Below are positions 3,225 to 51,763 of a stretch of 64,000 nt of DNA, piece by piece. A program made the position numbers and the translations under genes. The stretch comes from Parcubacteria group bacterium Gr01-1014_38 (GTDB lineage Bacteria; Patescibacteriota; Andersenbacteria; UBA10190; CAIZMI01), in assembly GCA_007376145.1 (NCBI GenBank), contig VMFP01000003.1, positions 28,741-92,740 of the forward strand, in the 5' to 3' direction. The notes under the pieces are model-generated. The model ran no database searches. It was not told the DNA's origin and saw nothing but the letters and a program-made list of their open reading frames with translations. The stretch's first letter is position 1. The number at the start of each line of letters is the position of its first letter.

Positions 3225-3515
3225 ATGAACGACCTGAAACAAGTTGGTGATTTACCAGGAGCCCAACAGAAGGCGCTCTACACCATTCTCCGCCTGGATA
3301 AGCCTGCATTTCGGACGTCCGACGTCCGCAAGAAGATGGAAGGAACTGCCACGGGCAAGTCCGTCGGGGCGATTCTCAACGCTCTCTTCCGCAACGGCTA
3401 TCTCGAGAAGCTTCAAGGTGGTAGGGATAAACTCTGGAAGCTCTCTGAACAAGCTGAAACTGTCCGTGACGAGATCAGACGGAAAATTTCCGCCGTGAAG
3501 GTCTACTGGTCATGA
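3225..3515 (+). CDS. Small winged-helix-like putative regulator
   Basis: 96-aa ORF with helix-turn-helix-like content. Its stop overlaps the start of the downstream helicase (ATGA), indicating translational coupling. Confidence 0.4.
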   Translation: MNDLKQVGDLPGAQQKALYTILRLDKPAFRTSDVRKKMEGTATGKSVGAILNALFRNGYLEKLQGGRDKLWKLSEQAETVRDEIRRKISAVKVYWS

Positions 3516-9600: not shown

Positions 9601-9996
9601 CCGAAATTTACCTATGACGATCAGAAGTATTACGCACTTGATACCCTATTCGTAATGACGGGCGAATCTCTGAAATACTTGTTAGCAATTCTCAATTCGA
9701 AAATTTCCGAATGGTACTTCGCCCAAATCTCGACGAGTTCTGGCATGGGAACCACTAGATGGAAGAAGTACAAAATTGAACAGTTTCCAATAAAAAAGAT
9801 ATCTAAGGAGGAACAAAAGCCGATTGTACACCTAATCGATAAAATACTTTCCCTAACGATGGGCGAGGACTATTCGGCAAGCGATACGAAGCAAGCCAAA
9901 GTCCGCGAATACGAAAGACAAATCGACCAGCTCGTCTATAAACTCTACGGTCTTACACCAGAGGAGATTTCAATTGTTGAGCAAGGCAATGGCTAA
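6691..9996 (+). CDS. Eco57I/PglX-like gamma-class N6-adenine DNA methyltransferase with C-terminal specificity region
   Basis: Motif I 'DPAVGSGAFPV', motif IV 'ANPPY', and an N-terminal 'IVFLYFLQKKGWF' helix typical of type IIG/BREX PglX-like methyltransferases. No nuclease domain is present. The start overlaps the helicase stop (ATGA). Confidence 0.85.
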   Translation: MTREQAKQLVQEALQRPFDKGGFVRLVRNLLNHLEDAPFTYSGNTMRHAYANAVKSLERIGKYEDPEGRKIDVLVVNLRHVHALDHARTMQRNFIAWYLNGSRGDVFKDAALVAFHADDAPDWRFSLVRMDYRLTKSGEKVKAVTELTPARRFSFLVGQHEKTHTAQKQLLPILEDDTHDPLLSNLEQAFSIETVTKEFFGRYRDLFLETKEALDKVARRDNAVREEFSNKEVDTTDFAKKLLGQIVFLYFLQKKGWFGVARTGKWGSGPKNFLRQLFEKKHGDYKNFFNDILEPLFYEALAKERDNDFYSRFNCKIPFLNGGLFDPIYNYDWVHTDILLPDELFSNTLRTKEGDIGAGILDVFDRYNFTVKEDEPLEKDVAVDPEMLGKVFENLLEVKDRKSKGTYYTPREIVHYMCQESLVNYLAAELEGMVGREDIETLIKYGETAVEHDRHVEEGGETPTYQHRLPEAVRARAKVIDDKLADIRVCDPAVGSGAFPVGMMNEVVRTRNALTNYVEDKDDRSMYEFKRHAIQSSLYGVDIDPGAVEIAKLRLWLSLVVDEEDIKKIKPLPNLDYKMVQGDSLSSVQKNLFNQPLFNKLEELKPKFFEETNARKKQEYRRQIDELIDQITRGHKDFDYEVYFSEVFHEKKGFDVAIANPPYLQIQKMAKSEKERFRKIFRTFSKTGDIYCLFYERAIQILKQDGTLTFITSNSWLRARYGELLRKLLIEKANPVRLINYEDARMFEHAIVETNILIAQKSQWNGRLHATTVKNNNLNALPLDEYVKGNTSVISDLGVDSWNIADKASSGLKKKIESHSVSLKDLNVSVYRGITTGFVEAFVVDEEIRRNLITQDEKSAEVIKPVLRGQDAGRYFYAWKGLWLITLQSGWTNRNRGGKSPESFFAETYPAVHEYLKGVGSKIKIGAIKAKGKGLYGRDDQGDYWWELRDCDFYSEFEKEKVIWGELSDKPKFTYDDQKYYALDTLFVMTGESLKYLLAILNSKISEWYFAQISTSSGMGTTRWKKYKIEQFPIKKISKEEQKPIVHLIDKILSLTMGEDYSASDTKQAKVREYERQIDQLVYKLYGLTPEEISIVEQGNG

Positions 9997-11032
9997 GCGT
10001 CTTACTATTATTCTCGGTGCCGGTGCATCCTATAGCGTCAATCCGGATGGAAAGGCACTTGATACCCCTGGTTATCGACCACCTCTCGCGCATGAGATTT
10101 TTCGAGGTAGTCGAGAATTTAGAGTTATTTTGAATAAGTATCCACTCGCGGAACTCCTCGCAAGTGATATCGATCGCCGCATAAAACAGAACCGACAAGG
10201 AGTTGGGCTCGAACAAATCTTGCGTAGTTACGAGCAGGAAGTAACGGCGGGACGTGATTCACACATCGCCCGTCAGTTTTTGCAAATCCCTCTCTATCTT
10301 AATGAATTGTTCGGAGAGATAACGACTCACTTTACCAAACAGCCCGATGAGTACAACAACCTCGTGAATATAGCGCTCGGTCACCTCGATGAAGTTCTGT
10401 TTCTGACTCTGAATTACGACAATCTTTTTGAGATAGCGTTATCTCGAATCTCTAGCGTAGATTTTTCTGCAGAGCATCATTATACGCACGATGACAAATG
10501 GAAGCTCGTTAAACTTCACGGGTCGGTCAACTGGTATCGCCAGTTTTCGGGCTATCAGATTACAGAAGCAAGTGACAAGGAGTATTTTGCCCAACTGCAG
10601 CGCACTCCTCTTCCTCTTCAGCTTGACGATCGATTCATTTTAACGAGCCTACACGAGCATGCTCGGAAGTACATCGGGAACGCTCCTGTATATCCAGCAC
10701 TCACGGTACCCGTCGATGGAAAGTATCAACTGAATTCGCCGCCCGAGCATATTCAGTCCGCGACGGATTTTCTCTCAGGGTGCGAAAACTACCTCATTAT
10801 CGGCACGAGTGGTCGTGATCGCGATTTACTTGACCTGCTCCAGCAGCACGCACGGCAAGGGAAAGTTTTGGTTGTTGGGAGAGAGCAAGAAAATGCCGAG
10901 CGCACGAAGAGGAATTTTCAGGAAGTTGTCCCACAATTTCGATCTGATATGTCTGTGTATTCTCACCCGAGAGGATTCAGTGAATTTGTTGACAGCGGAG
11001 CACTGGACGAATTCTTACATAAGATCGCGTAA
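9986..11032 (+). CDS. SIR2-like (SIR2_2 family) NAD-dependent domain protein
   Basis: N-terminal 'TIILGAGASYS' Rossmann motif and 'KLHGSVNW' His motif typical of defence-associated SIR2 domains. The ATG at 9986 overlaps the 3' end of the methyltransferase. Confidence 0.7.
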   Translation, partial: AMAKRLTIILGAGASYSVNPDGKALDTPGYRPPLAHEIFRGSREFRVILNKYPLAELLASDIDRRIKQNRQGVGLEQILRSYEQEVTAGRDSHIARQFLQIPLYLNELFGEITTHFTKQPDEYNNLVNIALGHLDEVLFLTLNYDNLFEIALSRISSVDFSAEHHYTHDDKWKLVKLHGSVNWYRQFSGYQITEASDKEYFAQLQRTPLPLQLDDRFILTSLHEHARKYIGNAPVYPALTVPVDGKYQLNSPPEHIQSATDFLSGCENYLIIGTSGRDRDLLDLLQQHARQGKVLVVGREQENAERTKRNFQEVVPQFRSDMSVYSHPRGFSEFVDSGALDEFLHKIA

Positions 11033-18335: not shown

Positions 18336-19292
18336 ATGCTTACCCACACCGATATTCATTATCTAGTTGGTTTACTTACTAGAGTGGAGGAAGCTGACGA
18401 TGTCATCGTTGAGTTAGGCGATATGGTGTACGACTCAGCGGCCAATGAAGAGAGGGACGTAGATATTACTGTTACATATACTGATAAGAACGGTGAAAAA
18501 ACTGCCTACAAAGGTGTTGAAGTTAAGGATCATAGTAGACCGCTTGATGTCCAAAAGGTTGAAGAGCTTTGCCAGAAGCTTGCAGACATGCCAGACATTA
18601 CACATAAAGCAATTGTTTCGGCGAGCGGCTATAGAGACGGTGCGATAAAAAAGGCTCAAGCACATGGAGTAGAGTTGTTGGAAATAGCTGATTGGCTAAA
18701 TCCGTACGAGGGATTCAACGTGAAGTTTACTGATAATGCTCTCACTCTAATTGAGCCCGAGTGGGTAGATGGTCCTCATGTGCGTATTAATGTCGCAAAG
18801 AAAGATATTGATGATCTATCGGGCGAATATCAAAACAATCCACGAGTATGCAATAAATTGGGTGATACGTATCCTCATGCAGTGGATCTCAATACCTTGA
18901 GCCGGTATGCTCACAGCACCGTATCGAATAAGATTCAGTGGCAGACTGATCCAATTCGCGTGAGGCACGGTGAAAGTATTCCTATACACACCGCTGTGCT
19001 TTTTTCAGAAGCACCATATATTAAACTTCGCAACAAACTGGTTTTAGTAGAAAATTGTACGGTTACCGGCGAAATTTACTGCATAGTTCACGACAAGCCC
19101 GCGTTCAGGGTATTGCGACAATATGGCAGCGAAAAACCAATCTCAGGCTGTATAATGGTTGAGCTAAAGAACCATAATCTTACGGGTATATCCGTGAGTA
19201 ATTCGAATAACAAAATTACTGCCCTCAACATTCCGTACGCCGATCGTGTAAAGAAGACGATACGTAAACATCGAATCGGAAGACGGGACTGA
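18336..19292 (+). CDS. Hypothetical protein, possible PD-(D/E)xK nuclease fold
   Basis: 'RDVDITVTY...YKGVEVKD' is a D...(E/D)xK-like pattern. AT-rich cassette flanked by related repeats. Confidence 0.35.
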   Translation: MLTHTDIHYLVGLLTRVEEADDVIVELGDMVYDSAANEERDVDITVTYTDKNGEKTAYKGVEVKDHSRPLDVQKVEELCQKLADMPDITHKAIVSASGYRDGAIKKAQAHGVELLEIADWLNPYEGFNVKFTDNALTLIEPEWVDGPHVRINVAKKDIDDLSGEYQNNPRVCNKLGDTYPHAVDLNTLSRYAHSTVSNKIQWQTDPIRVRHGESIPIHTAVLFSEAPYIKLRNKLVLVENCTVTGEIYCIVHDKPAFRVLRQYGSEKPISGCIMVELKNHNLTGISVSNSNNKITALNIPYADRVKKTIRKHRIGRRD

Positions 19293-37500: not shown

Positions 37501-39207
37501 GTGCTGCCAGAAAACGTCCTCAACGAGATTCTCGTGACACCCGGATATGTCACCGCAGCGGATTTCGGACACGCTGCCGATTATGCGCGGAAGTATCGTC
37601 TTCCCATCGAAGAGGTCATTGTGAGTCTCGGCATTCTGGAGGAAGCAGCCCTCGGCCAGATCATCGCTGACTACTACCAAGTTCCGTATGTAAATCTGCG
37701 AGGCCGGCAGATGGACAAGACGATCGTCCGCCTTGTTCCCGAAGCGCTCGCCCGCAAGCAGCAGCTCATTTTGTACGACCGTGACGCGGAGCGAGGCTAT
37801 GTGGCCATCCTCAACCCGGCGGACCGAGAGACCGTCAACATTCTCGAGAAGCATTTGGGGTTTCCCATCAAGCCGACGTACGCCTCGCCCAGCGCCATTG
37901 CGGAGGCACTCCGGGTATACCAGAAGGGCCTCCACGAGGAGTTCGAGCTCCTTATCCGCGGGCATGTGTCTGAAGCAGCGGGTCGGAAGCAGGCAGGACG
38001 CACCGGTCTCCTCGCGGCGGAAGAGGTGTCCATTGTCCGCATCGTCGAGACGATCATCAAGTACGCGTACCAGAGTCGCGCGTCTGACATTCATATGGAG
38101 CCAACCGAGCGTGAGGTTGCGGTCCGCTTCCGCATCGATGGCGTTCTCGGTGATGTGGTGGCGATCCCGAAGGACATTTACGAACTCGTCGTGATGCGGG
38201 TCAAAGTGCTCGCCCAGCTCCGGACGGACGAGCACTTGGCAGCGCAGGACGGGAAATTTCGCTTCGATGTCGTCGAGGAGGATCTCGACATCCGGGTGAG
38301 CATTGTTCCGGTGGTCCATGGCGAGAAGATCGTCCTCCGCCTCCTCTCGCAGAAGCTCCGGCGGTTCACCCTCGAAGACCTCGGGATGCAGAAAGACGAC
38401 CTCCAGAAGGTCCGCGTGGGGTTCCTGCGGCCGCACGGGATGATTTTCTCCACGGGACCGACCGGGTGCGGGAAGACGACGACCCTCTACGTGATTTTGA
38501 AGATTCTCAACACGCGCGAAGTCAACATTGCGACCATCGAGGATCCGGTGGAGTACTACATCGAAGGGGTCAACCACATCCAGGTCAATCCGAGAACGAA
38601 CCTGACCTTTGCCACGGGGCTCCGGAGTATCGTCCGTCAGGACCCGGATATTATCATGGTCGGGGAGGTCCGCGATCAGGAAACGGCGAGCATTTCGATC
38701 AACGCCGCGCTCACCGGGCACCTGGTCTTGAGCACCCTCCACACCAACGACGCGCCGACGACGCTCCCCCGCCTCCTCGATATGGGAGTGGAGCCCTTCC
38801 TCCTCGCGAGTTCCGTCAACGTCGTGATCGGCCAGCGCCTCGTGCGCAGGATCTGCCGCGACTGCCTGGTGAGTCGGGAGCTCTCCGATCAGGAACGCGA
38901 CGTTCTTCTCCGGCAGCTCCACGCCACCTCTGCCGTGCGTGCCGAGGTGGAAAGTCGCCCACGGGTCTACGGGGGGCAAGGGTGCGCGCGCTGTAATGGC
39001 CTCGGCTACCTCGGCCGCATCGGCATCTTCGAGGTCATCGCTATTGATGATGAGATTCGTCCGCTCATCATGCGGAAGGCGAGCGCCGCAGAACTTCGAG
39101 AGCGGGCCATCGCTCGCGGGATGACCACGATGCTCGAGGACGGAGTTCGGAAAGTGTTCCAGGGAGTGACCACCCTGGAAGAGCTTCTCCTCGCTGTCCA
39201 GGAGTAA
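37501..39207 (+). CDS. pilB: Type IV pilus assembly ATPase PilB (GspE family)
   Basis: N-terminal T2SSE_N-like domain, Walker A 'GPTGCGKTTT', Asp/His boxes, and the tetracysteine 'CRDC...CARCNG'. GTG start. Confidence 0.9.
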   Translation: MLPENVLNEILVTPGYVTAADFGHAADYARKYRLPIEEVIVSLGILEEAALGQIIADYYQVPYVNLRGRQMDKTIVRLVPEALARKQQLILYDRDAERGYVAILNPADRETVNILEKHLGFPIKPTYASPSAIAEALRVYQKGLHEEFELLIRGHVSEAAGRKQAGRTGLLAAEEVSIVRIVETIIKYAYQSRASDIHMEPTEREVAVRFRIDGVLGDVVAIPKDIYELVVMRVKVLAQLRTDEHLAAQDGKFRFDVVEEDLDIRVSIVPVVHGEKIVLRLLSQKLRRFTLEDLGMQKDDLQKVRVGFLRPHGMIFSTGPTGCGKTTTLYVILKILNTREVNIATIEDPVEYYIEGVNHIQVNPRTNLTFATGLRSIVRQDPDIIMVGEVRDQETASISINAALTGHLVLSTLHTNDAPTTLPRLLDMGVEPFLLASSVNVVIGQRLVRRICRDCLVSRELSDQERDVLLRQLHATSAVRAEVESRPRVYGGQGCARCNGLGYLGRIGIFEVIAIDDEIRPLIMRKASAAELRERAIARGMTTMLEDGVRKVFQGVTTLEELLLAVQE

Positions 39208-39220
39208 CGAGAGACCTCGT

Positions 39221-40435
39221 ATGGAGTTTTCCTACACGGCGACGACGGACTCCGGGGAGACGCGGACGGGCACGGTGGAAGCCGGCTCGGCTCGCGAGGT
39301 CGTGAGCGCGCTGAAGACGCAGGGACTCATTGTTCTCTCCATCCGTCCCGAGCGCGAGAGAACGCCCTGGCAGAAGCGGTTCGGGGGATGGTTCGTCCGT
39401 GCCTCGGCGACCGAGCGCGTCCTCCTCGCACGGCATCTCGCGCTCATCCTCCGCGCCGGGCTCCCGATTGACCGAGCCTTCGAAATCCTCCAATCCCAGG
39501 GGCGTAACAAGGGGCTCCGGAGAGTTCTCCACGAAATTCTCATCCGCATTCAGAAGGGGGATTCGCTCGCGGCGGCCCTGGCGCGCTACCCGACGGTCTT
39601 TCCGCCGATCTTCGTGGCCATCGTCCAGTGGGGAGAAATCGGCGGAACGCTCGTCGAGAGTCTCGAGCATCTCGCCGGTCAGCTGGAGAAGGACCACGAC
39701 CTCCGGGTGAAAGTGCGCGGGGCGCTCTTTTATCCGGCGATTGTCATCGGGGCCACCATCGTTCTCGGCGTCATCATGGCGGTGTTCATTCTTCCCCGTC
39801 TGGTCATTCTTTTCGAGTCGTTCCGCGTGGACCTCCCCCTGTCCACTCGAATCTTTCTCGCCGTCGCCCGGTTCTTCCTCCGGCGCGGGGTTCTCCTCAT
39901 CCCCCTCCTCATCGCGCTCCTCGTGGGAGCCTTCGTGGCATTCCGCTCGAAGGCGCTCCGGCCGTTCACGTCTCGGCTCATTCTCCGGATGCCCGTGTTC
40001 GGGTCCCTCATGAAGCAAGTCAACCTCGCCCGGTTCGACCGCATTCTTGGTTCGCTCCTCCGCTCCGGCATCCCCGTCGTTGATGCGCTCGGAATCACGG
40101 CAGAATCCGTGGGGAATTACCAGTACCGGCGGGCTCTCCAGGCAGTTCAGAGCGCCGTCCGAGAGGGCGTTCCCATCGGCCGCGAGATTGAGAAGTACGC
40201 GATCTTCCCAACAATTCAGACGCAGATGGTCACGGTGGGAGAGGCGACCGGCCGCTTAGCGGATGTCCTTCTGTTCCTGGCGGAGTTCACCGAACGCGAC
40301 GTTGATGCGCGGACCAAGACGCTTGCCACCGCCGTGGAACCGCTCCTGCTCATCGTGATCGGGGTGGTCGTTGGTGGGGTGGCCATCGCCATCATCACGC
40401 CCATCTATCAACTCACGGCTTCGTTCTCCAAGTGA
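39221..40435 (+). CDS. pilC: Type IV pilus inner-membrane platform protein PilC (GspF family)
   Basis: Two GspF-type repeats with TM segments. Typical 404-aa size. Confidence 0.85.
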   Translation: MEFSYTATTDSGETRTGTVEAGSAREVVSALKTQGLIVLSIRPERERTPWQKRFGGWFVRASATERVLLARHLALILRAGLPIDRAFEILQSQGRNKGLRRVLHEILIRIQKGDSLAAALARYPTVFPPIFVAIVQWGEIGGTLVESLEHLAGQLEKDHDLRVKVRGALFYPAIVIGATIVLGVIMAVFILPRLVILFESFRVDLPLSTRIFLAVARFFLRRGVLLIPLLIALLVGAFVAFRSKALRPFTSRLILRMPVFGSLMKQVNLARFDRILGSLLRSGIPVVDALGITAESVGNYQYRRALQAVQSAVREGVPIGREIEKYAIFPTIQTQMVTVGEATGRLADVLLFLAEFTERDVDARTKTLATAVEPLLLIVIGVVVGGVAIAIITPIYQLTASFSK

Positions 40436-40959
40436 CCGGGACGTCCAGGATTCCGAAGTTCGTGCCGGTGGGTCGTCGCGCCTCCGGAGGCTTCACCCTC
40501 ATCGAGATGGTCGTCACGCTTGCGATTCTCGTGGCGATGCTCGCGCTCGCCTCGCCTTTCCTCCTCTCGTTCCATACCCGCGGGCTCCTGGACGATGCGG
40601 CAGAGCAGATTTCGCAGGACCTGCGACGGGCGCAATCGTTGGCGATTGCCGGCGAGGGTTCGGATGGGGTGAGCGGGAGAAAGCACGGTGTCTATATCAA
40701 GGACACCAACCTCCCGGGGAACTGGGAGGGCTGGGTTCTGTTCACGGGGGTGTTGTACACGGATGGAGCGGCATCGAACGAAGTGCACGTGCTCCCCACC
40801 ACCGTCGATTTGGTGTCGGCTACCCTGGCGGGGGGCGGTTCAACCATCGTGTTCGCTGAGCGCACAGGACGGACGGCCGATACCGGATCCATCGTCCTCC
40901 GATCGGGCAGCGAGCAGGTCACCCTGACGGTGAACTCCGCCGGTCGGGTCTCACGCTAA
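40432..40959 (+). CDS. Prepilin-type N-terminal methylation-domain pseudopilin
   Basis: 'GGFTLIEMVVTLAIL' class-III signal. Confidence 0.6.
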   Translation: MTGTSRIPKFVPVGRRASGGFTLIEMVVTLAILVAMLALASPFLLSFHTRGLLDDAAEQISQDLRRAQSLAIAGEGSDGVSGRKHGVYIKDTNLPGNWEGWVLFTGVLYTDGAASNEVHVLPTTVDLVSATLAGGGSTIVFAERTGRTADTGSIVLRSGSEQVTLTVNSAGRVSR

Positions 40960-40963
40960 GGCG

Positions 40964-43882
40964 ATGCGGACGTCCCCGTCCGGTCAGATTCTCCTCGAAG
41001 CTCTTCTTGGCCTCGGCGTCGTGACGGTACTCGGCGGGTTTGTGACCGTCGCGCTCCTCGAGACGCTCTTGACGGACCGGAGCGGAAAGGAGCGGACGCA
41101 GGCGGCGAGTCTCGCTGCGGAGGGTGTCGAGGCCGCCCGGGCGATCCGCGATCGCGGCTGGCATCTCCTCGCGGACGGCCCGCACGGCATTGCGCGCACG
41201 GCCAGCCCGAATTCCTACGCGTTTCAGGGCGCGCAAGACACGACGGGGATCTACACCCGCGCCGTCACGGTTTCGCCGGTCTACCGCGCGACCACCGGGG
41301 GCATTACGGACGACCGCGCCACAAGCTCTCTCGATCCGGACACGAAGAACGTCCGGTCGAGCGTGCGGTGGAATCGCGGCGGGGGGTTCGTCCTGGACGT
41401 GACGCTCACGACGCTCCTCACGAACAAGCCCGCGCGCACCTGGCTGGAAACGCTCGAGAGCGAATTCCTCCAAGACACTCGGTGGAACACGCAGGTGCAT
41501 CCCGCGCCTCCCCCGCCCTCTGGAAACGGTTCGGTCCGGCTCCAGTCGTTCGGCGGTGCCGGTTTCGGCGGAGCCCCGGTTCTCGAAGGGGAGTACGACT
41601 TCAACGCGAACGGACCGACGGATGGGCGGGACGTCGCGGTCGTGGACGGTCACGCCTTCGTGGCCACCGGATCGAATGCGGGCGGTGCGGCGCTCTACAT
41701 TCTCGACGTCTCGCTTCCCCGAACGCCGAGGCTGGTGGGGAGCGCCGATCCCGGCGGGCGGCTGCTCTCCGTGGCCGTCGCCGGGGAATACGCGTACCTG
41801 GGGACCGATCGGAATCTGGGGGAACTGCGCGTGATTGATATTCGGAACCTCTCCGCTCCCGTGGCGGGAGCGGAAATTAATGTCCCCGGGAATGCGAGCG
41901 GCGCCAGCCTCGCCGTGGATGGCCGCTTCCTGTACCTCGGGACCAGCCGCGGGGACTTCAGCGTCTTTGGCCTCGATACCCCATCCACGCCAGTGCGCCT
42001 GGCGACGCTCTCGCTCCCAGGAACCCCCAGTATTCGGGGAATCGCCACCCGCGGCTCACTCGTCTACCTCGCCACCAGCGCCAACGACGCCGAGGTTCAG
42101 GTACTCGATGTTTCCGCCGTCGGGACTGGGGGGCCGCCACGGGTCGTCGGAACCCTGGATTACCCGGGCAGCGAGGACGCGACGAGCATCGTGGTCTCTG
42201 GCCGAGCAGCGTACGTGACGAATGAGCACCTCGAGCCGTTTCCGGATCATGGAGAACTGTTCATCCTTGACCTGGCGGACCCGCGGAGTCCCACCGTGTC
42301 CGGGACGCTTCTCGTTGATGGCCAAGCGCTTGATGTCGCGGTCCTCGGGTCGTTCGCGTACCTTGCGACCTCGGCGCCCACTGCCGAGTTTCAGCGCGTC
42401 ACGGTGACGAACCCCGCTGCGCCGGTTCTGTCCGGGACGGTCAATCTGGCCGGACCGGCTCGCGCGATCGCCGTTTCCGGACCGTTTCTGCACCTCACGA
42501 CGGACGGCAATACGCAGGAGTACGCGGCGATCGGGAATAACCCGATCAGTCCCGTGGCCCTGGCCGCGAAAGGCACGGTGGATCTTCCCGGATCGGCGGA
42601 CGCCCGGGCGATCGTCCTTCACCACACCACGGCGTTTGTGGGAACGCTCGAAAACCCCGCGGGACCAGAGTTCTGGGCCGCGGATGTCCGGAACGCGTCC
42701 TCGCCCGTCACCATCGGAAGTTTCGAGGTTGGCGCCTCGGTGCGTGCTCTCGCCGTAGACGGCTCGTACGCGTACCTCGCGACCACGAAGGACGACGCCG
42801 AGCTGATCGTCCTGAACGTCTCGAATCAGGCGCTTCCGACCCTTGTTGGAAGTTTCGATCTCCCGGGGCCGCAGGACGGGCGCGGTGTTTCGGTGTACGG
42901 CACCCGCGTCGTCCTCGTGCGGGATGCCGTCCCCAATCAGCCGTGGCTTTCGGTGCTGGACGCGCTCTCGCCGCTTCCGCCCGGTCCCGTGCGCGGGTCG
43001 CTTGCCAGCGCTCTCGGCAGCTTTCTCGGCGGCCGCGGCGTCAGCCTCGGCGGAGCGCACGCCTACGTTCCGGTCCAGAACACGAACGATCCCGATGGGG
43101 AGCTCCAGCGGGTGTCGCTCGTGACCGTGACCGCTCCCCTGACGACCGGCGCCTACAATGCGGCGGGGGCAGGCGAGGGCCGGTCCGTCTTCGCCCAAGG
43201 ACGCTTCTTCTCCCTCGTCACCGACGAGCGCGCCGGCGGGAGCCCGGAGTTCTTCATGGTCACTGCCGGAAGTCCCTCCGAACCCCTCACGCTCGAGACG
43301 CCCACCAGCGCTCTTGACCTTCAGGGAGCCGGTGAGACCCTCCAAGTGTTCGGTCCGGTCGCGTACGTGGGAACGCGCGCGCCCACCAGAGAATTCCAAG
43401 TCCTCGATCTTCAGAATCGGAGTTCGCCGTCGCGGCGGTTGAGCTGGACGGCGGCCGGGGGAGTCTACGGCGTCGCCGTCGCGGACGACTTTCTCTACCT
43501 GGCGACCGGGAATGACGCCGGAGAGTTCGTGATTCTCGAAGGGAAGGACAGCGGGTTCGCCGGCGAAGGCACGATCGAATCCATTCCCTTCGATGCGGGA
43601 TCAGACGCGACGGTGTTCCTCCGCCTCGCGTGGCAGGCGATCGCCAACGGCGGTGTGGTAAAATTCCAGATACGAACCGGGATGACCCAAAGCCAACTCT
43701 TGGCGGCGCCCTACGTCGGTCCGGATGGCACGGCCGCGACGTACTACCAGAGCTCTCCTGCGGCGTTGACGAACCCCGTTGGGCAGCCGCTGGTGGCACG
43801 GTGGTTCCAGTGGAAGGGAACCTTGAACGGGGATGGGTCGGCGAGCCCCGAGCTCCAGGAAGTGGCGGTCGGCTTCCGGTAG
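40964..43882 (+). CDS. Giant pilin-like protein with LVIVD-type beta-propeller repeats (paralog 1)
   Basis: Prepilin-like N-terminus 'SGQILLEALLGLGVV' (G|Q...E+5). More than ten repeats of the pattern 'L(V/Y)xLDVSxPxxPxxVGxxxLPGxAxxxAVxGxYAY(L/V)AT'. Confidence 0.6.
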   Translation: MRTSPSGQILLEALLGLGVVTVLGGFVTVALLETLLTDRSGKERTQAASLAAEGVEAARAIRDRGWHLLADGPHGIARTASPNSYAFQGAQDTTGIYTRAVTVSPVYRATTGGITDDRATSSLDPDTKNVRSSVRWNRGGGFVLDVTLTTLLTNKPARTWLETLESEFLQDTRWNTQVHPAPPPPSGNGSVRLQSFGGAGFGGAPVLEGEYDFNANGPTDGRDVAVVDGHAFVATGSNAGGAALYILDVSLPRTPRLVGSADPGGRLLSVAVAGEYAYLGTDRNLGELRVIDIRNLSAPVAGAEINVPGNASGASLAVDGRFLYLGTSRGDFSVFGLDTPSTPVRLATLSLPGTPSIRGIATRGSLVYLATSANDAEVQVLDVSAVGTGGPPRVVGTLDYPGSEDATSIVVSGRAAYVTNEHLEPFPDHGELFILDLADPRSPTVSGTLLVDGQALDVAVLGSFAYLATSAPTAEFQRVTVTNPAAPVLSGTVNLAGPARAIAVSGPFLHLTTDGNTQEYAAIGNNPISPVALAAKGTVDLPGSADARAIVLHHTTAFVGTLENPAGPEFWAADVRNASSPVTIGSFEVGASVRALAVDGSYAYLATTKDDAELIVLNVSNQALPTLVGSFDLPGPQDGRGVSVYGTRVVLVRDAVPNQPWLSVLDALSPLPPGPVRGSLASALGSFLGGRGVSLGGAHAYVPVQNTNDPDGELQRVSLVTVTAPLTTGAYNAAGAGEGRSVFAQGRFFSLVTDERAGGSPEFFMVTAGSPSEPLTLETPTSALDLQGAGETLQVFGPVAYVGTRAPTREFQVLDLQNRSSPSRRLSWTAAGGVYGVAVADDFLYLATGNDAGEFVILEGKDSGFAGEGTIESIPFDAGSDATVFLRLAWQAIANGGVVKFQIRTGMTQSQLLAAPYVGPDGTAATYYQSSPAALTNPVGQPLVARWFQWKGTLNGDGSASPELQEVAVGFR

Positions 43883-43892
43883 GGTGGTGAGT

Positions 43893-46800
43893 ATGCGGAC
43901 GAGGCGCTTTCGCGCGCAGGGCCAGGCGCTCCTCGAAGTGCTCGTGAGCCTCGCGGTGGTCTCCATTCTCGGGTTCGCGGTGATCTCGGTCGTGCTCGAT
44001 TCTCTCGCTGCCGGCCGGATCGGTACCGAGCGGGCTGGCGCCCTCGCGTCCGCGGCGGAAGGAATGGAGGCGGCGCGCCAGATCCGTTTCCGCACGTGGC
44101 GGGCGCTCTCCACCGGCTTCCATGGCGTGACCACCGAGACCGCCGGGGACGAAACGCGGTACGCCTTCAGCGGCGCGAATGATACGCGGGGGATGTTCAC
44201 CCGAACGGTGACGGTCGATCAGGCACAGCGTGACGCTCCCGGGAATCTCGTCGACTCCGGAGGAACGACTGATCCCGATACGCGCCGCGTGGCTTCCACC
44301 GTGTCCTGGGGGACGGGGATCACCGCTCGTTCCGTGAACCTGATCAGCTATCTGACCCACTGGAACCGCCGCTCCTGGGTTGAGACGCTCAAGAGCGAAT
44401 TCAATCAAGGGGTCCTCACGGATACGGAAGCGCTCGACGCGCCTCCACCGCCGACCGGGAATGGTTCAGTTCGCCTGCGCCGGATCGTCTCCGGTTCCTC
44501 GTCCTTGAATGTCAAGGGGGCCTACAACTTTAACGCGACGGGCCCGTCCGACGGGCGCGACGTCGCCGTGTCGGGAGGGTACGCCTACCTCGTGACCGCC
44601 CTTGGAGTGGGGATCTCTCGCCTCTACGTGATTGACGTCTCGACCGCCAGCACGCCGGTCTGGAAGAACCCTGACGGTGGCGGGCTCAATACGGGGGCAA
44701 AGAACTACGCCGTTGCGGTCTCGGGGAATTACGCCTACGTGGCGACCGATGACAACAACGGCGAACTGAAAGTCATCAACGTGGCGAATCCCAGTTCCCC
44801 CGCGCTCCTTCCTCTCTGTGCGGATTGCAATCTCCCCGGGAACGCGGACGCGTTGAGCGTGGCGGTGGACGGTTCTCGCCTCTACGTGGGCACGGCCGCG
44901 AACACCACCCAGTTCTACGTCTTCGATGTGAGCCAGCCAGCCACGCCTGTGCGCCGCGGCAGCCTCTCGGTCCACGCACCCGCGCCGGATGTTCGCGGGA
45001 TCTCGCCTGCCGGCAATTACGTCTACCTCGCCACCACCGCGGATGCGGCGGAGGTGGTCGTCGTGAATGTCACGATCCCCAGCAGTCCCTCCGTCGCCGG
45101 CACGGAAAACCTCGACGGAGCGAGCGATGCGACGAGCCTCGTCGTCACCGCCAACCGCGCGTACGTGACCCGCCTCGGGGACGTGCAGTTTGTCGTCTTA
45201 AACCTGTCCAACCCCATTGATCCGAGTCCCCTCGGCTCCGTCTCGCTCGGCGCGCCGGCGACGGACCTCGCCGTGTCCGGCACGTACGCCTACGTCTCGA
45301 CCGAAGGGTCCGAGCGAGAGTTCATCCGCGTCAATGTGTCGGACCCGGGCATCCCGGCCCTTGACGGCCTCGTCAACCTCCGCGACAACTCGCCCGCGCG
45401 CGGGGTTGCGTTCACCGGTTCCTGCGCCTACGTGGCCACCAATGGGAACGATCAAGAACTCGCCATTATCTGCGGCGTCGGGGCCACCGATCCCCTCACC
45501 GTCCTCTCGTGGTTCGACACGCCCGTGGGCTCCACCAATGCACCCTCGGTGGCGCTTCAGGGGACCGTTGCCTACCTTGGGACCGGGGACGCATTCTACG
45601 CCTTCGATGTGAGCCAGCCAGCCACGCCCGCGCTTCTCGGGAGATTGAGTCTGCCGGGTCTGCCGGCAGCTGGCGTGCACGATATCGCGGTGAGCGGGTC
45701 CTACGCCTACCTCGCGACGTCGAGTCTCACCGAGTCGCTCGTCATCGTTGACGTCTCGAATCCCGCGAGTCTTGTTCGCAGAGGGTCGTACAACGCGGGG
45801 AAAGGCGGGCTCTCCGTCGCCGTCTATGGACCCGATCTCGTCTTCCTCGGGACGGACGCGGAGGGGGGGGGAGGGTTGTTCGTCGTCTTGAACGTCTCGA
45901 ACCCCGCGACGCCGTCCTTCGTGGGGCAGGCGACGATCAACGCGTCCATCACGGATATCGCGGCGGCGGAGAGCAACGCGGCGTACGTCACGCTCAATCG
46001 GGATCTGCCCCCCTGCGGTCCTCCTCCGGTCGGTGCCGCGCCGGGAGGGTTTCGATCCTTCGTCCGGCGATGGGTCTTCCCCGTGGCCTACGCCGTTCCG
46101 TGCTTGGGTCGGGCGCCGTCATCTTCTGCGCTCGCAAGACTCGGAGAGTTCTTCCGCCGCATCTTCGCGGTGCGCACCGCGTATGCGTTCCACGACACGG
46201 CGGAGATTCAGCGGGTCGACGTCTTGAATCCCGCGAGCCCGGCCTTCGGCGCCTTGTTCAACGAAGCCGGAAATGATAACGGCAGCGGCGTCGTCGTTTC
46301 CGGACCCTCCATTTACCTTGTCACGATGGATAAATTTGGGGAGGTACCGGAGTTCTATATTCTGAACTACGTCGCGGGCCCTCCCGACGCGCTCCAGCTC
46401 GAGAATGCCGGGAGCGCCCTCGACATCGGCACGCAGGTGCGAGGATTGGCCCAGCACGATGATCTTGCCTACCTCGCGGTGGACGTAGAAGGGCCCGGGG
46501 GGTTCCAGGTCGTGGATGTCACGAACCACGCCTCGCCCGTTCTGCGCAACACCCTCGATCTCGGAAATGTGGGGTCGCATTCCGTCGCGGTGTCCGGCAC
46601 GTACGGCTACCTGGCCGCGCACGATCCGCGGGAATTCATCATCGTAAAGAACATTGACTCCATCGGCTACGTCGCCCAAGGCACGTTCGCCTCGATTCCC
46701 TTCGACGCGGAGACGATCCGCGGGTGGGAGCGGATCGGGTGGACCGCCGATCTGAACGGAGGCACCGTCAGGTTCCAGGTGCGCTGGGCGGACCCAGTTC

Positions 46801-47018
46801 CAATGATCACCCCGACGTGCGACCTTGCCCTGGGCGCCGCGACGTACGTGGGGCCGAACGGAGATTCGAACGCTTTGTACACCGTCACCGACACGATCAT
46901 TACGGGTTCCGCAGGCCAGCAGCCCTTCGCGCGCTGCTTCCAGTGGCGCGGCACCCTCAACGGCACGAACAATAACTCCCCGGAAGTCCAGGACGTCACG
47001 ATCACCTTCACGCCGTAA
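43893..47018 (+). CDS. Giant pilin-like protein with LVIVD-type repeats (paralog 2)
   Basis: 'AQGQALLEVLVSLAVV' prepilin-like N-terminus. It is colinear with paralog 1, including the conserved C-terminal 'IPFDA...(V/T)(K/R)FQ(I/V)R...QW(K/R)GTLNG' module. The start is taken at ATG 43893. Confidence 0.6.
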   Translation: MRTRRFRAQGQALLEVLVSLAVVSILGFAVISVVLDSLAAGRIGTERAGALASAAEGMEAARQIRFRTWRALSTGFHGVTTETAGDETRYAFSGANDTRGMFTRTVTVDQAQRDAPGNLVDSGGTTDPDTRRVASTVSWGTGITARSVNLISYLTHWNRRSWVETLKSEFNQGVLTDTEALDAPPPPTGNGSVRLRRIVSGSSSLNVKGAYNFNATGPSDGRDVAVSGGYAYLVTALGVGISRLYVIDVSTASTPVWKNPDGGGLNTGAKNYAVAVSGNYAYVATDDNNGELKVINVANPSSPALLPLCADCNLPGNADALSVAVDGSRLYVGTAANTTQFYVFDVSQPATPVRRGSLSVHAPAPDVRGISPAGNYVYLATTADAAEVVVVNVTIPSSPSVAGTENLDGASDATSLVVTANRAYVTRLGDVQFVVLNLSNPIDPSPLGSVSLGAPATDLAVSGTYAYVSTEGSEREFIRVNVSDPGIPALDGLVNLRDNSPARGVAFTGSCAYVATNGNDQELAIICGVGATDPLTVLSWFDTPVGSTNAPSVALQGTVAYLGTGDAFYAFDVSQPATPALLGRLSLPGLPAAGVHDIAVSGSYAYLATSSLTESLVIVDVSNPASLVRRGSYNAGKGGLSVAVYGPDLVFLGTDAEGGGGLFVVLNVSNPATPSFVGQATINASITDIAAAESNAAYVTLNRDLPPCGPPPVGAAPGGFRSFVRRWVFPVAYAVPCLGRAPSSSALARLGEFFRRIFAVRTAYAFHDTAEIQRVDVLNPASPAFGALFNEAGNDNGSGVVVSGPSIYLVTMDKFGEVPEFYILNYVAGPPDALQLENAGSALDIGTQVRGLAQHDDLAYLAVDVEGPGGFQVVDVTNHASPVLRNTLDLGNVGSHSVAVSGTYGYLAAHDPREFIIVKNIDSIGYVAQGTFASIPFDAETIRGWERIGWTADLNGGTVRFQVRWADPVPMITPTCDLALGAATYVGPNGDSNALYTVTDTIITGSAGQQPFARCFQWRGTLNGTNNNSPEVQDVTITFTP

Positions 47019-47074: not shown

Positions 47075-47431
47075 ATGACTACCCTCGATGTCGTCAATCA
47101 GCTGCTCACGGTCGTCCTCGCCCTGGCGGTGTGTCTGCTCACGTTCGGAGTTCTCGCGGTCGGAAGTCGTCTCTCCGGCCGCACCTCGCCGCGTTCCCTG
47201 CTTCGTCGGGCCGTGGTCGTCACGCTCCAGGATCCCCGCGTCGTGTTTGCAAGGCATGCGGCGCGGAACACCAAAACGCAGGAGATCCTCGTTCCGTTTT
47301 CGCGCTACCTGGGAGCGGCACGGCTGCTCTTGTTCGGCTTCAGCGTCACCGTGCTCCTCTTGGCGGTGAAACTCGCGCTCGTCTTCCTTCGCCTCGGGAT
47401 CGCGTTTCCCTACCGGATCTCCGGAGGGTGA
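47075..47431 (+). CDS. Possible small membrane protein
   Basis: 118 aa with two hydrophobic segments. It is supported only by the upstream promoter-like motif and its position in the operon. Several overlapping alternative frames exist. Confidence 0.25.
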   Translation: MTTLDVVNQLLTVVLALAVCLLTFGVLAVGSRLSGRTSPRSLLRRAVVVTLQDPRVVFARHAARNTKTQEILVPFSRYLGAARLLLFGFSVTVLLLAVKLALVFLRLGIAFPYRISGG

Positions 47432-47441
47432 TCCTTCCAAA

Positions 47442-47954
47442 ATGCCCCGCCGCGCTTCTGGTTTCACGCTCCTCGAACTCCTCGTGTACATCGGGATTGT
47501 GGCGGTCGTCATCACCGCGGTGACGGCCCTGACCATTGACCTCCTCCGCGGTCGGGCAAAGGCCACCTCGCTCGAAGTCGTGAACCAGAACGCCCGCCTG
47601 GTCCTCGAGCGGATGACCACGGCGATCCGGGAGGCGAACCTCGTCAACGGGCCGCCGGCTTCCATCTTCGGGAGTTCTCCGGGACGTCTCTCTCTCGCGA
47701 TGCCAGAGGTAGGGCGGAACCCGACCGTGTTCGACGTCTTTGCCAATGAGCTTCGGATTACCGAGGGGAGCGGCGGCGTGGCCACGCCGCTCACCTCGCC
47801 CGATGTCGAAGTGGCGTCACTCACCTTCACGCATTTAAACCAGGCCACCTCGGAGGGAATCCAGATCAACCTGACCGTGCGCCGAAAGAATGTCTCCGGA
47901 GCCCCGGAGTTTACCGTGGTGCAGACCTATGTGGCGGGAACCATTGTCCGGTAA
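47442..47954 (+). CDS. Prepilin-type pseudopilin
   Basis: 'SGFTLLELLVYIGIVAVV'. Confidence 0.65.
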   Translation: MPRRASGFTLLELLVYIGIVAVVITAVTALTIDLLRGRAKATSLEVVNQNARLVLERMTTAIREANLVNGPPASIFGSSPGRLSLAMPEVGRNPTVFDVFANELRITEGSGGVATPLTSPDVEVASLTFTHLNQATSEGIQINLTVRRKNVSGAPEFTVVQTYVAGTIVR

Positions 47955-47955
47955 C

Positions 47956-48405
47956 ATGCCGTCGGAGAGGGCGCGTCGCGAGGAAGGGGCGGTCGCGCTT
48001 ATCACGGTTCTCGTGCTCATGGCCGTGGCCCTCGCGATCGTCACCGGTATGAACCTCCTCGCGATCTCCGAGTCTTCCACGACCTCCCTGCAGGTGCAGA
48101 GCAATCGAACGTTCCACGGTGCGGACGCCTGCGTGGAGGAGGCCCTGTATCGCCTTACCAAGAATACGGCCTTCACCGGAGGGCAGGTTCGGGCCGGCGG
48201 CGTCTTCTGCGACGTGGGGGTGGTTGACCTCGGTTTAGGCCAGCGGCAGGTTACGGCGTGCGCGACGGACGGGACCACGGGGTGCACGGTGCAGGGACGG
48301 CTGAAGCGGCGGATAGAGGCGGTGGCGCAGATCACCACCATCACGATTTCCGGCCGGCCGATTCAGACGATTTCCTTGACCTCGTGGAAGGAATTGACGC
48401 AGTAG
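47956..48405 (+). CDS. PilX-like minor pilin
   Basis: 'EEGAVALITVLVLMAVALAIVTG' PilX_N-like hydrophobic N-terminus. The start is taken at ATG 47956. Confidence 0.5.
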   Translation: MPSERARREEGAVALITVLVLMAVALAIVTGMNLLAISESSTTSLQVQSNRTFHGADACVEEALYRLTKNTAFTGGQVRAGGVFCDVGVVDLGLGQRQVTACATDGTTGCTVQGRLKRRIEAVAQITTITISGRPIQTISLTSWKELTQ

Positions 48406-48412
48406 GGAGTCC

Positions 48413-50170
48413 ATGAGGTTGTTCCAGAGAGCGAAGCCTCCTAAGCCACCGTCTTCGATCGTCCGCGCGGCCCGACGCCTGGCGTCGGTTCTTCCCGAAC
48501 CTTCCGTGCGGGTGCGGCTGACGCCGGTATCCCGCGCCTTCGGTTTGGACATCTCGGACACCTCTCTCGAGGGCATGGAGCTCGAATTTCGGCGAGGGAG
48601 TTTGAAGCTCCGCGCGTATAACCGCGTGCTCCTCGATGCCGGCGTCGTCGTTGACGGAGAGATTCTCCAGGCACAAAGCCTCCGGAGCGCGCTTCTTTCG
48701 TTGCTGAAAGGAGCGCGTCCGAGCTCGTTTTCCGGAAAGGCCGTGGTGACCCTCCCGGAATCGAAGGTGTACCTGCACACCTTCGAGTTTCCCACCCGCC
48801 TCCGCGAGCGACAGATCCGCGAGGCGATCCCCTTTGAAGTCCAAGGGGTCCTCCCCGTGGATCTTGCGGACATGGAGACGGATCTTCTCTTCCACCACTC
48901 TCGCGACCGGCTGTCGCAGCACGTGCTCTTCGCGGCGGTGCCGAGGAAGCTCGTGGAGTCGTACCTCTCGCTGCTGACCGCTGCCGGCATCGAGGCGGTC
49001 GCGTTTGACATTGAGTCGTACACGCTCGCCCGTTCCCTGATCGGGTTGCGCTCCGATCCGGTGCTGCTTGCTGACCTCGGCGCACAACGAACGACGCTGG
49101 CGGTCGTGGAGCGGGGAGGGGTTCACGGAGCGGTGAGCATCCCGGTTGGCGGGACGACCATTACCGAGGCCATCAAGCGCGCGGCCGGCGTCTCGCCGGA
49201 GGAAGCAGGCATCATCAAGGGCACCACGGGACTCACGGCGGAAACCCCCGCCGCCGTGCGCTCGGCGATCGAAGAATCCCTCCGTCCGCTCTTCCACGAG
49301 ATGAATCAGGTGCTTCGCTCGCACGAGGGTCATACGGGAAGGAAAGCGGAAGGCACCGTCCTCGCTGGCGGGAGCGCTCTCCTTCCCGGTCTCGACGCTG
49401 CTGTCGCCGACGCCACCGGGCGGACGGCGAGCGTCGGTGACCCCTTCGCGACTCCCGCCGTCCAGTTTCCGGCGCAATTGTCCGAAGCGGATATCGAGTG
49501 GCTGCAGCGCGGCCGACTCTTTTTTGCCGCGAGCGTCGGTCTCGCGATTCGCGGAGCTCGCCGCAACTCTCCCGAACACGGAGTGAATCTTCTCCCCCAC
49601 GCGTTTCGCCAGCGCTACGTGCGCTGGCGCGAGAATCTCGCCTTGACGGCGCTGTCCCTTCTCACCGTGGCCGTGTGCACGTCCCTCTTTGTCGTCCTTG
49701 GGCTTGAGCTTCTCGGCGCACGATTTGCGGCACGGAGCATCCGGGCGGAGGCCGAGCCCGTCCGCGCGGCCCTCCAGAGCACGCGCTTTTCCTCGGCGGT
49801 TGCCGAGGCGAAGGCCGTGAACCAGGAAGTCGAGGCCGTGAAGTCCTTTTCGGCGCATCGCGTGGATCCGCTCCACCACCTCGAACGCATCCGTTCGGCC
49901 ATTCCCCTCGGCATCCGCCTGATTGGCGTGCAGGCGGAGATTCCGCCCGGCTCCTTGGCGAACCTGACCGTCAAGCTCCAGGGAGTGGCAGATACGCGAG
50001 AGCAATTCTTGGATTTTGAGAAGAGCATGCGCGCGCTCCCAGGGATTCTCGGGGTCGATTCCCCGCTCACGAATCTTGACAAGCCGACGGCCGTTCCCTT
50101 CGTCCTGAACCTGACGCTGGCAACGTCGCCGCCGTCTCCGACGCCTTCCCCTGTTCTTCCCTCGCCGTGA
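48413..50170 (+). CDS. PilM-PilN fusion (type IV pilus assembly)
   Basis: N-terminal actin-like PilM region ('LADLGAQRTTLAVVERG', 'VLAGGSALLPGL'). The C-terminal PilN-like portion has a TM segment ('LALTALSLLTVAVCTSLFVV'). Confidence 0.7.
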   Translation: MRLFQRAKPPKPPSSIVRAARRLASVLPEPSVRVRLTPVSRAFGLDISDTSLEGMELEFRRGSLKLRAYNRVLLDAGVVVDGEILQAQSLRSALLSLLKGARPSSFSGKAVVTLPESKVYLHTFEFPTRLRERQIREAIPFEVQGVLPVDLADMETDLLFHHSRDRLSQHVLFAAVPRKLVESYLSLLTAAGIEAVAFDIESYTLARSLIGLRSDPVLLADLGAQRTTLAVVERGGVHGAVSIPVGGTTITEAIKRAAGVSPEEAGIIKGTTGLTAETPAAVRSAIEESLRPLFHEMNQVLRSHEGHTGRKAEGTVLAGGSALLPGLDAAVADATGRTASVGDPFATPAVQFPAQLSEADIEWLQRGRLFFAASVGLAIRGARRNSPEHGVNLLPHAFRQRYVRWRENLALTALSLLTVAVCTSLFVVLGLELLGARFAARSIRAEAEPVRAALQSTRFSSAVAEAKAVNQEVEAVKSFSAHRVDPLHHLERIRSAIPLGIRLIGVQAEIPPGSLANLTVKLQGVADTREQFLDFEKSMRALPGILGVDSPLTNLDKPTAVPFVLNLTLATSPPSPTPSPVLPSP

Positions 50171-50772
50171 ACGACCTCGTTCGACGCAACACCTTCGTCC
50201 GCTTCGCCGCTCTCTACGCGGTCTTCTCCCTCGTCATCCTCGTGGTCTCCGGGAGTCTCCTTCACCGGGTCGGAAGGAGCGTTCGCGAGGATCGAGGATT
50301 GCTCGCCCGTCGCGAGGAACTCTCTCGGGATTTCGAGAAGCTGCTGAAGGATTTGCACGAAACGGAGCGCGCGCGGCGGGCCCTCCTGCTCATCCGCCCG
50401 CATCCGGAAGAACTCGTCTCGTTCATCCGAGGCTTGGAGCGGGCCGCTGCCCGGGCCTTCATTGACCAGAACATCACCGCCTTTCCTGGAATCATTCCGG
50501 TTGGCCAGGGCGCCTATCCCTCCCCCATCGTGCGGTACCGGGCCTCCCTGAACGGGCCGTGGGAGAAGTTCGAAGCGTATCTCCGCGAGCTTCAACAGCT
50601 TCCCCACCTCATCCGGATCGAGGCGATCCACATGGGGACGACGCCCGACGGGAGTCTTCTCAAGCAGGGCCAGATTGAGGCGCTCTTTGCGGTTGCGGTG
50701 CTGGATCCCGCCGCGCCTCGTCCAGGCTCGCCGGGAGCCGCGGACGTTCCGGTTTCTTCTCCGTCTCCTTGA
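50167..50772 (+). CDS. PilO-like pilus assembly protein
   Basis: N-terminal TM plus a coiled-coil periplasmic domain. It overlaps the PilMN stop. Confidence 0.4.
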   Translation: MNDLVRRNTFVRFAALYAVFSLVILVVSGSLLHRVGRSVREDRGLLARREELSRDFEKLLKDLHETERARRALLLIRPHPEELVSFIRGLERAAARAFIDQNITAFPGIIPVGQGAYPSPIVRYRASLNGPWEKFEAYLRELQQLPHLIRIEAIHMGTTPDGSLLKQGQIEALFAVAVLDPAAPRPGSPGAADVPVSSPSP

Positions 50773-51166: not shown

Positions 51167-51763
51167 ATGAAATCTCGCTACGCAGGATTTACTCTCATCG
51201 AACTCCTCATCGTCATCGCCATCATCGGGATTCTCGCCGCGGTGGTGATCATCGCGGTAAACCCCGGTCGGCAGCTTGCCCAGGCGAACGACGCCCGTCG
51301 TTCCAGCGAGGTCAACGCCCTCCTGAACGCGATCGGGCAGTATGGCGCAGACAACACGGGGCAAATACCTAGACAAAATACCGCACCTGGTTCCGCCTTC
51401 CCGATTGATACCATCGTCACGTGCGGGACTCCGGCATTGCCCTGCGTTCAGGTGGTGATGACAGACGCGAATGCTACCTGTGAGGTCATCGCGGGTACTC
51501 AGTGCCTCGGCTCGCCGACCGCGACGGCACGGGTGAACCTTCCCACAACGGGCTTCTGTGCCGATTTAAGCGATCCAGATAATCCCTCTCCGGCTGGAGA
51601 CGATGACCTCGTTCCCTTGTACCTCACCGGGATTCCTATCGATCCGCAAGCACCCGCAATCGACGAGTCAGATTACTACGTGAACCATGACCCCGGCACG
51701 CGCCGGATCACGGTGGGAGCGTGCAACCCCCAGATTCAAGCGTCGATCGAAGTCACGCGCTAG
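51167..51763 (+). CDS. Type IV major pilin
   Basis: 'AGFTLIELLIVIAIIGILAAVV' canonical prepilin peptidase site with Glu+5. Cys pairs in the C-terminal domain. Confidence 0.85.
   Translation: MKSRYAGFTLIELLIVIAIIGILAAVVIIAVNPGRQLAQANDARRSSEVNALLNAIGQYGADNTGQIPRQNTAPGSAFPIDTIVTCGTPALPCVQVVMTDANATCEVIAGTQCLGSPTATARVNLPTTGFCADLSDPDNPSPAGDDDLVPLYLTGIPIDPQAPAIDESDYYVNHDPGTRRITVGACNPQIQASIEVTR

Follow-up and report, generated by a model that had tools for sequence, protein, structure and literature searches.

Two giant candidate modular pilins with tandem LVIVD beta-propellers in a type IV pilus operon of a Parcubacterium

Modular pilins, in which a grafted module is used for adhesion, have been described in Streptococcus sanguinis, with a vWA module in PilB and a lectin module in PilC (Raynaud et al. 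2021, PMC8179133). The same authors searched InterPro for proteins that combine N_methyl (IPR012902) with extra domains, and their Dataset S1 holds several architectures of the type IPR012902-IPR013211(xN); an 860-residue Candidatus Falkowbacteria protein in which IPR013211 occurs 12 times was called "the most extreme case" and "of unknown function" (PMC8179133). IPR013211 is the LVIVD repeat, and the combination of N_methyl with LVIVD is already catalogued in that survey and has never been studied. Here we describe a pair of such proteins, encoded by two adjacent giant genes, A and B, in a type IV pilus operon. The genes lie in a 64,000-nucleotide (nt) stretch, hereafter the window, of the public metagenome-assembled genome Parcubacteria group bacterium Gr01-1014_38, an ultrasmall bacterium that has not been cultivated (Candidate Phyla Radiation, Patescibacteria). 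To what was catalogued we add the clustering of repeat counts at 7, 14 and 21, a conserved linker and C-terminal module, conserved gene order, the presence of a paralogous pair, and the escape of A from surveys of this kind.

Beta-propellers have been linked to pilus tips before. In TM7x (Saccharibacteria), the minor pilin PilX2 combines a non-canonical signal peptide with a seven-bladed RCC1 propeller at its C-terminus and has been proposed to be a tip adhesin; when it is deleted, host binding drops from ~10.6% of host cells to 4.6%, and the filament persists (PMC11623550). The PilY1/PilC tip adhesin of diderm type IVa pili contains a propeller of family IPR008707 and is presented at the pilus tip (PMC8179133). 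LVIVD repeats themselves are known as a 42-residue repeat family of cell-surface proteins that are predicted to be extracellular (Adindla et al. 2004, PMC2447325).

The region from 40964 to 47018 of the window is taken up by two long open reading frames (ORFs), both on the plus strand, as are the operon features between 37501 and 51763 described below. ORF A spans 40964-43882 and encodes 972 residues. The longest frame of ORF B spans 43833-47018 (1061 residues). We place the start of B at the ATG at 43893 (43893-47018, 1041 residues) because this codon lies 11 nt past the stop of A, has a Shine-Dalgarno-like sequence, GGTGGTGAG, 4 nt upstream, and gives a protein that is 100% identical to the deposited [quoted passage not shown]. 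A preliminary description of this DNA had reported two giant paralogues of 972 and about 1041 residues at these coordinates, and both the sizes and the paralogy hold: A and B align over their full lengths at 37% identity (E 9e-164) and, judged from this alignment, are end-to-end paralogues. Both, with masses of about 100 kDa, are annotated here as putative giant modular pilins on the basis of the reading frame, Pfam, the A/B alignment and a repeat hidden Markov model (HMM), together with AlphaFold2 (AF2) modelling for A and the deposited protein for B. When A and B were searched for DNA repeats, long near-identical tracts were absent; what recurred was the LVIVD core alone, mostly spaced at close to multiples of ~138-141 nt. 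The search thus offers no evidence that gene conversion took place recently or that a template/variable repeat pair is present. No hypervariable region pointing to a binding site was seen when A was compared with its orthologue P0004, B with P0002, and A with B; identity by region is 34-67% and roughly even.

Both proteins score far above the threshold of the Pfam LVIVD family (PF08309, cut-off 20.2 bits), with 94.1 bits for A (E 3e-27) and 138.8 bits for B (E 3e-41). For Pfam Beta_propel (PF09826, threshold 22.4 bits), A lies above the threshold (30.9 bits) and B just under it (19.2 bits). The repeat HMM, which was seeded with the blades of A and refined by iteration over the family, detects 14 units of 42-52 residues in A and 14 in B, in line with the preliminary description, which had counted more than ten repeats of about 45 residues. 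In the AF2 model of full-length A (mean predicted local distance difference test score (pLDDT) 80.9), residues 206-866 form 14 consecutive four-stranded blades, and the Foldseek matches of A, at ~E 1e-16, are to proteins that carry seven-bladed propellers in tandem, two or three of them, such as Utp proteins, DDB1 and COPI beta'. The blades of A are encoded at 41579-43561, with the predicted boundary of the two propellers near residue 541 (window 42586), as delimited from Pfam, AF2, the repeat HMM and Foldseek; those of B, delimited from Pfam and the repeat HMM, are encoded at 44508-46676.

Repeat counts in the wider family fall into size classes. Seven units are found in 15 of the 17 members of ~615-645 residues (the other two have 6 and 8), 12-14 units, most often 14, in members of ~935-1045 residues, and 21 units in all five members of 1266-1271 residues. 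Outside these classes are one truncated member (707 residues, 11 units) and three members with extra insertions. The clustering at 7, 14 and 21 suggests that each member carries one, two or three seven-bladed propellers, and we read A and B as two-propeller members, each with two predicted seven-bladed LVIVD beta-propellers. The unusual size that the preliminary description had emphasized stands when A and B are set against ordinary pilins but not within this Patescibacteria family, where such lengths are normal and members of ~620 and ~1266 residues occur.

Several members carry additional sequence. Propeller 2 of B contains a ~70-residue insertion rich in Pro, Gly and Arg (window 45960-46170, B residues ~690-760; it contains PPCGPPPVGAAPGG) that is absent from A, and at this site the orthologue P0002 carries a Pro-rich insertion of its own, different from that in B. 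P0010 (1262 residues) has ~320 extra residues within the pilin head, and P0060 (844 residues) has ~200 between linker and propeller; from these two cases, the scaffold appears to tolerate further cargo.

At the N-terminus, A has the leader MRTSPSG, the presumed cleavage site and then QILLEALLGLGVVTVLGGFVTVALL, and B has the leader MRTRRFRAQG, the presumed cleavage site and then QALLEVLVSLAVVSILGFAVISVVL. The mature proteins would begin with QILLE and QALLE, respectively, with Gln at +1 and Glu at +5 in both. The leaders are short (6-9 residues), basic and Gly-ended, and more than 20 hydrophobic residues follow the presumed site in each protein. Among the best 120 relatives of B, 46 have the pattern G/xxxxE (the slash marks the presumed cleavage site) with at least 12 hydrophobic residues, and five further family members have mis-called starts or an N-terminus outside the motif pattern. 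At least 46 of these 120 have the complete architecture. Position -1 in the 46 with the motif is Gly in 45 and Ala in one, and Glu+5 is conserved, whereas the +1 residue varies (Gln in 21, Phe in 7, Ser in 6, Ala in 5 and Glu in 4). In the family alignment, the Glu at residue 12 of A (+5) is invariant.

The AF2 model of the A N-terminus has one continuous helix from residue 8 to residue 64 (57 residues), followed by an antiparallel beta-sheet from 72 to 153, which together are predicted to give the pilin "lollipop" shape; pLDDT exceeds 93 across residues 10-150 when this domain is modelled alone, and the full model has the same secondary structure there. Compared with the whole PDB, a profile of the family N-terminus gives weak matches, starting from E 0.002, most of them to the alpha1N segment in solved structures of type IV pilins and GspG and a few to unrelated proteins. 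Foldseek with the A N-terminal model against the PDB gives a best E of only 0.19, in a comparison where most solved pilins lack alpha1N and where a long helix with a small sheet is handled poorly by the program. From AF2 and the family alignment, the predicted pilin module of A comprises residues 1-155 (40964-41428), with the leader, the alpha1 helix and the beta-sheet head; the pilin module of B is encoded at 43893-44363. The sequence features support assignment of both N-termini as a divergent class III signal rather than a Sec signal. A Sec signal is disfavoured because the hydrophobic stretch comes after, not before, the presumed cleavage site and runs on as a 57-residue helix; the features of a class III signal (a basic leader ending in Gly, Glu+5 and a helix extending beyond the site) are present, and those of an ordinary Sec signal are not.

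The pilin head is joined to the first propeller by a linker with the conserved pattern W.(E/Q)T...(D/E)F..G......G.V.L. In A it covers residues 156-205 (41429-41578), as delimited from the family alignment and a linker HMM, and has low model confidence; in B it is encoded at 44364-44507. The last blade is followed by a C-terminal module of ~110 residues with the motifs FD.G, FQ.R, GPDGT and W.Q(Y/W)(K/R), which is shared by A and B, as had been claimed from the outset, and is conserved in the family at large. In A this is a predicted beta module of residues 867-972 (43562-43879; AF2, alignment and HMMER), and in B it is encoded at 46677-47015. When HMMs of the linker and of the C-terminal module were run on the 120 best LVIVD relatives, only pilin-type proteins were matched; the Sec-signal LVIVD proteins of other phyla have neither element.

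The C-terminal module is found far beyond this family. A full HMMER scan of 1.84 billion cluster representatives matched 8869 proteins at E <= 0.001, 3799 of them with E <= 1e-10; many hold the module in tandem, with 2-14 copies, and their lengths reach 6474 residues; three of the four sequences read among these matches have a Sec-type N-terminus. Searches of Pfam, NCBIfam and PDB sequences gave no match for the module. By these searches it is a very common extracellular domain that those three resources do not describe.

Profile searches with the C-terminal and N-terminal alignments, which used a word-index prefilter, returned only 5 and 3 matches, and their useful product was P0276 (336 residues; contig L005, 724-1734). 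In this protein, the pilin module, linker and C-terminal module are joined directly, with no propeller. Its organization suggests an older scaffold into which propellers were later inserted. Two genes downstream of P0276 on the same contig is a bAvd gene (2826-3095), which we take to be an accessory gene of diversity-generating retroelements, and after it comes a 331-residue gene that is cut at the contig end.

The gene context of the family is conserved. All six organism-named pilin-type members come from Patescibacteria, Parcubacteria or Woykebacteria. Four other contigs (L001-L004) have the common order PilB, PilC, a small pseudopilin (143-175 residues), an LVIVD pilin and further minor pilins, and in three of them PilM and a terminal major-type pilin follow downstream. 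The closest contig, L001, has orthologues of both A (61% identity) and B (47% identity), whereas the other three have one copy each. The presence of both orthologues in L001 indicates that the duplication is older than the split of the two genomes and that both copies have been maintained.

In the window itself, A and B are preceded by a PilB-type assembly ATPase at 37501-39207 (Pfam T2SSE, E 1.6e-121; MshEN, E 1.6e-14), a PilC platform protein at 39221-40435 (T2SSF, E 7.9e-55) and a GspH/FimU-like minor pilin, or pseudopilin, at 40432-40959 with a canonical GG/FTLIE site (Pfam GspH and N_methyl; weak NCBIfam matches to ComGD and GspH). On the downstream side, B is separated from the next minor pilin by a small hydrophobic, probably membrane protein of 118 residues at 47075-47431, which is conserved: its positional counterpart in L001 shares 56% identity with it. 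Next come a 170-residue minor pilin with a canonical G/FTLLE site at 47442-47954 (N_methyl, E 3.6e-7) and a GspK/PilX-like minor pilin at 47890-48405 that begins G/AVALIT... and lacks Glu+5; the latter was assigned from its sequence and a weak NCBIfam GspK match (E 7e-4) and is conserved in L001. The placement of the two giant genes between pilC/pseudopilin and the minor pilins, as first reported, is therefore borne out by these neighbours. B itself has weak NCBIfam matches to PilV and GspI (E 0.03-0.05), far under the family cut-offs.

Farther downstream, 48413-50170 encodes PilM (PilM_2, E 1.3e-32, residues 44-381 of 585) with a C-terminal extension that includes a hydrophobic stretch. The extension of ~200 residues is PilN-like by position only, and the fusion is also present in L001 (a 575-residue gene). 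It is followed by a GspM/PilO-like protein at 50167-50772 (NCBIfam GspM, E 6.5e-6, under the cut-off) and a putative major pilin of 198 residues at 51167-51763 with a G/FTLIE site (N_methyl, E 3.4e-9; GspG-like in NCBIfam). Neither a secretin nor PilT turned up among the large ORFs of the window; that the window lacks a secretin is in keeping with a single-membrane envelope.

We propose that A and B are modular type IV minor pilins shown at the pilus tip as adhesins, and we put the probability of this reading at about 0.65. It draws on architecture, context and analogy, from which we infer processing, incorporation and ligand alike. A prepilin peptidase encoded elsewhere would cleave A and B after Gly-1, and the hydrophobic alpha1 helix would hold them in the membrane. 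Together with the GspH-like, 170-residue and GspK-like minor pilins, A and B could then form a priming complex that ends up at the pilus tip. According to established models of type IV filaments, Glu+5 is the docking partner of a neighbouring subunit's N-terminus, and the capping subunit (GspK/PilX) has no Glu+5. Because Glu+5 is kept in A and B and lost in the GspK-like subunit, we place A and B below the cap; they may sit just under it, as GspI/GspJ and PilV/PilW do. A propeller array of ~85 kDa would be too bulky for the filament body and so is expected to project from the tip, where it could bind a surface ligand carried by a host cell, a partner cell or a substrate. Each of the two paralogues may have its own binding specificity.

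Three observations weigh against this proposal. First, no prepilin peptidase (PilD) was found in any large ORF of the window. Second, the AF2 full model has a predicted template modelling score of only 0.54 and a low-confidence linker, which limits what can be said about the arrangement of the domains. Third, A has no match to Pfam N_methyl (PF07963), and B reaches 16.1 bits against a cut-off of 21.2; nor was a match to TIGR02532 reported for A or B in the NCBIfam scan. On this last point, the preliminary description had called the N-termini prepilin-like, with Gln at +1 and Glu at +5. These features are seen in both proteins, but neither reaches the curated N_methyl threshold. Within the family, 27 of the 31 aligned N-termini match N_methyl at E <= 0.1 (best 1.9e-7), and this comparison supports the view that the failure of A and B to match reflects divergence (Gln at +1 and a Leu-rich segment) and not a missing motif.

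Alternatively, A and B could be membrane-anchored surface receptors in which the pilin-like N-terminus serves only as signal and anchor. Such proteins, whether processed or not, would never be polymerised and would reside at the cell surface or the pilus base, like the class III-signal sugar-binding proteins of Sulfolobus or a short pseudopilus. The great size of A and B relative to the 198-residue major pilin, the non-canonical +1 residue, the subthreshold N_methyl scores and the indirect nature of the case for pilus incorporation would all fit, and TM7x PilX2 likewise is not a predicted PilD substrate by SignalP (PMC11623550). However, Glu+5, the residue associated with subunit docking, is invariant in the family while +1 drifts; the pilin head, and not the helix alone, has been retained and is well predicted; the place within the minor-pilin block is strictly conserved; and modular pilins of up to 50 kDa are demonstrably pilus subunits (PMC8179133). 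We therefore regard a non-polymerised receptor as an unlikely explanation, albeit the most serious competitor of the tip adhesin.

Improbable, in our judgement, is a mainly structural role in which A and B prime or cap the filament, as a PilY1-like plug that starts assembly or counters retraction, and the propellers are a scaffold. A and B lie alongside a complete complement of core minor pilins, PilY1 and minor pilins prime assembly in Myxococcus (as cited in PMC11623550), and the structural matches of the propellers are scaffold-type tandem WD40-like proteins. Against such a role, the number of propellers is 1, 2 or 3 at orthologous positions and P0276 has none, as would be expected of exchangeable cargo, and the TM7x filament still forms after loss of PilX2 (PMC11623550).

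That A and B are ordinary Sec-secreted LVIVD surface proteins or enzymes (for example, SBP56/methanethiol-oxidase-like) found in a pilus operon by chance is very improbable: most LVIVD proteins of other phyla do have Sec signals, and faint SBP56 and MtoX matches (E 0.19 and 0.11) were seen, but here the hydrophobic segment follows Gly, has Glu+5 and runs on as the long helix without an AXA end, family N-termini match N_methyl, and synteny is conserved. An SBP56 or methanethiol oxidase identity is rejected on the scores (SBP56, 10.9 bits versus 34; MtoX, 10.9 versus 650).

In the light of the tip adhesin proposal, the locus can be set beside the systems introduced above. A and B have the organization by which Raynaud et al. 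(2021) define modular pilins: a predicted pilin module (residues 1-155) joined to other modules, here LVIVD propellers and a C-terminal module. Like the S. sanguinis proteins, they pair a pilin module with a bulky graft, are encoded among the pilus genes of a monoderm-type system, and are predicted to be tip-exposed. They differ in cargo, which is two predicted seven-bladed LVIVD propellers plus a C-terminal domain and amounts to ~800 residues as opposed to ~300, and in having Gln at +1. Because A escapes the N_methyl model, surveys based on InterPro would miss it and would undercount modular pilins.

TM7x PilX2 resembles A and B in being a minor pilin of a Patescibacteria type IV pilus with a beta-propeller and a non-canonical signal. 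The domain content sets them apart: PilX2 has one RCC1-type propeller, whereas A and B have two of LVIVD type and a C-terminal module, and no Pfam match to RCC1 was found in A or B. PilY1 is also a large beta-propeller protein (~1000-1200 residues) encoded with minor pilins and appears analogous in function. Whereas in A and B a pilin is fused to the propeller array, PilY1 lies outside the pilins: it carries a Sec signal and attaches to the minor-pilin complex. Neither A nor B has a Pfam match to PilY1/Neisseria_PilC at E <= 1. On sequence grounds, then, A and B belong neither to the PilY1 family, of which they are candidate functional analogues only, nor to the RCC1-type PilX2 group. In functional terms, each may amount to a pilin joined to the part that PilY1 contributes in trans in diderm bacteria.

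Classical LVIVD cell-surface proteins share the 42-residue repeat family with A and B but carry Sec signals and other anchors (type IX secretion system, FlgD_ig or PKD) and lack the pilin module, the linker and the C-terminal module. The operon follows the same logic as the GspI/GspJ/GspK and FimU-PilV-PilW-PilX operons, with a GspH-like gene first, A and B at the PilV/GspI-like position, and a GspK-like gene without Glu+5 last. The core minor pilins of those systems have 100-350 residues and no propellers, and assignment of A and B to I or J is by gene order only.

Elsewhere in the window, guanine-plus-cytosine content is 44-51% between ~8000 and ~20000, compared with 55-67% in the remainder. 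Genes between ~3500 and ~20000 include an SNF2/PLD helicase (3512-6694), an Eco57I/MmeI-type restriction-methylase (6691-9996), a SIR2_2 protein (9974-11032) and an Mrr-like nuclease (18336-19292), along with many ORFs that have no Pfam match. This segment looks like an acquired defence island.

To our knowledge, all cultivated Patescibacteria live attached to other microbes. Type IV pili are the best-supported attachment device of the group, and we know of only one oral Saccharibacterium for which the host-recognising component has been identified. That a pilin can carry a grafted adhesion module, propellers included, is already established, so the value of the present finding is incremental and would not surprise a pilus specialist. 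The analysis also flags, in the C-terminal module, a very common extracellular domain that Pfam, NCBIfam and PDB sequences leave undescribed. A more far-reaching view, which we offer only tentatively and consider somewhat doubtful, is that the family constitutes Patescibacteria-wide host-recognition tip adhesins. In such a family, one to three LVIVD propellers would serve as exchangeable cassettes in a scaffold of pilin, linker and C-terminal module, the A/B pair would provide two specificities, and the C-terminal module (~9000 protein clusters) would be a new, very common extracellular binding domain. The number of propellers (1, 2 or 3) is a simple measure that lends itself to comparison between genomes and between host associations. 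For the far larger, uncultivated Parcubacteria group, the family supplies concrete candidates for the part of the pilus that binds the host.

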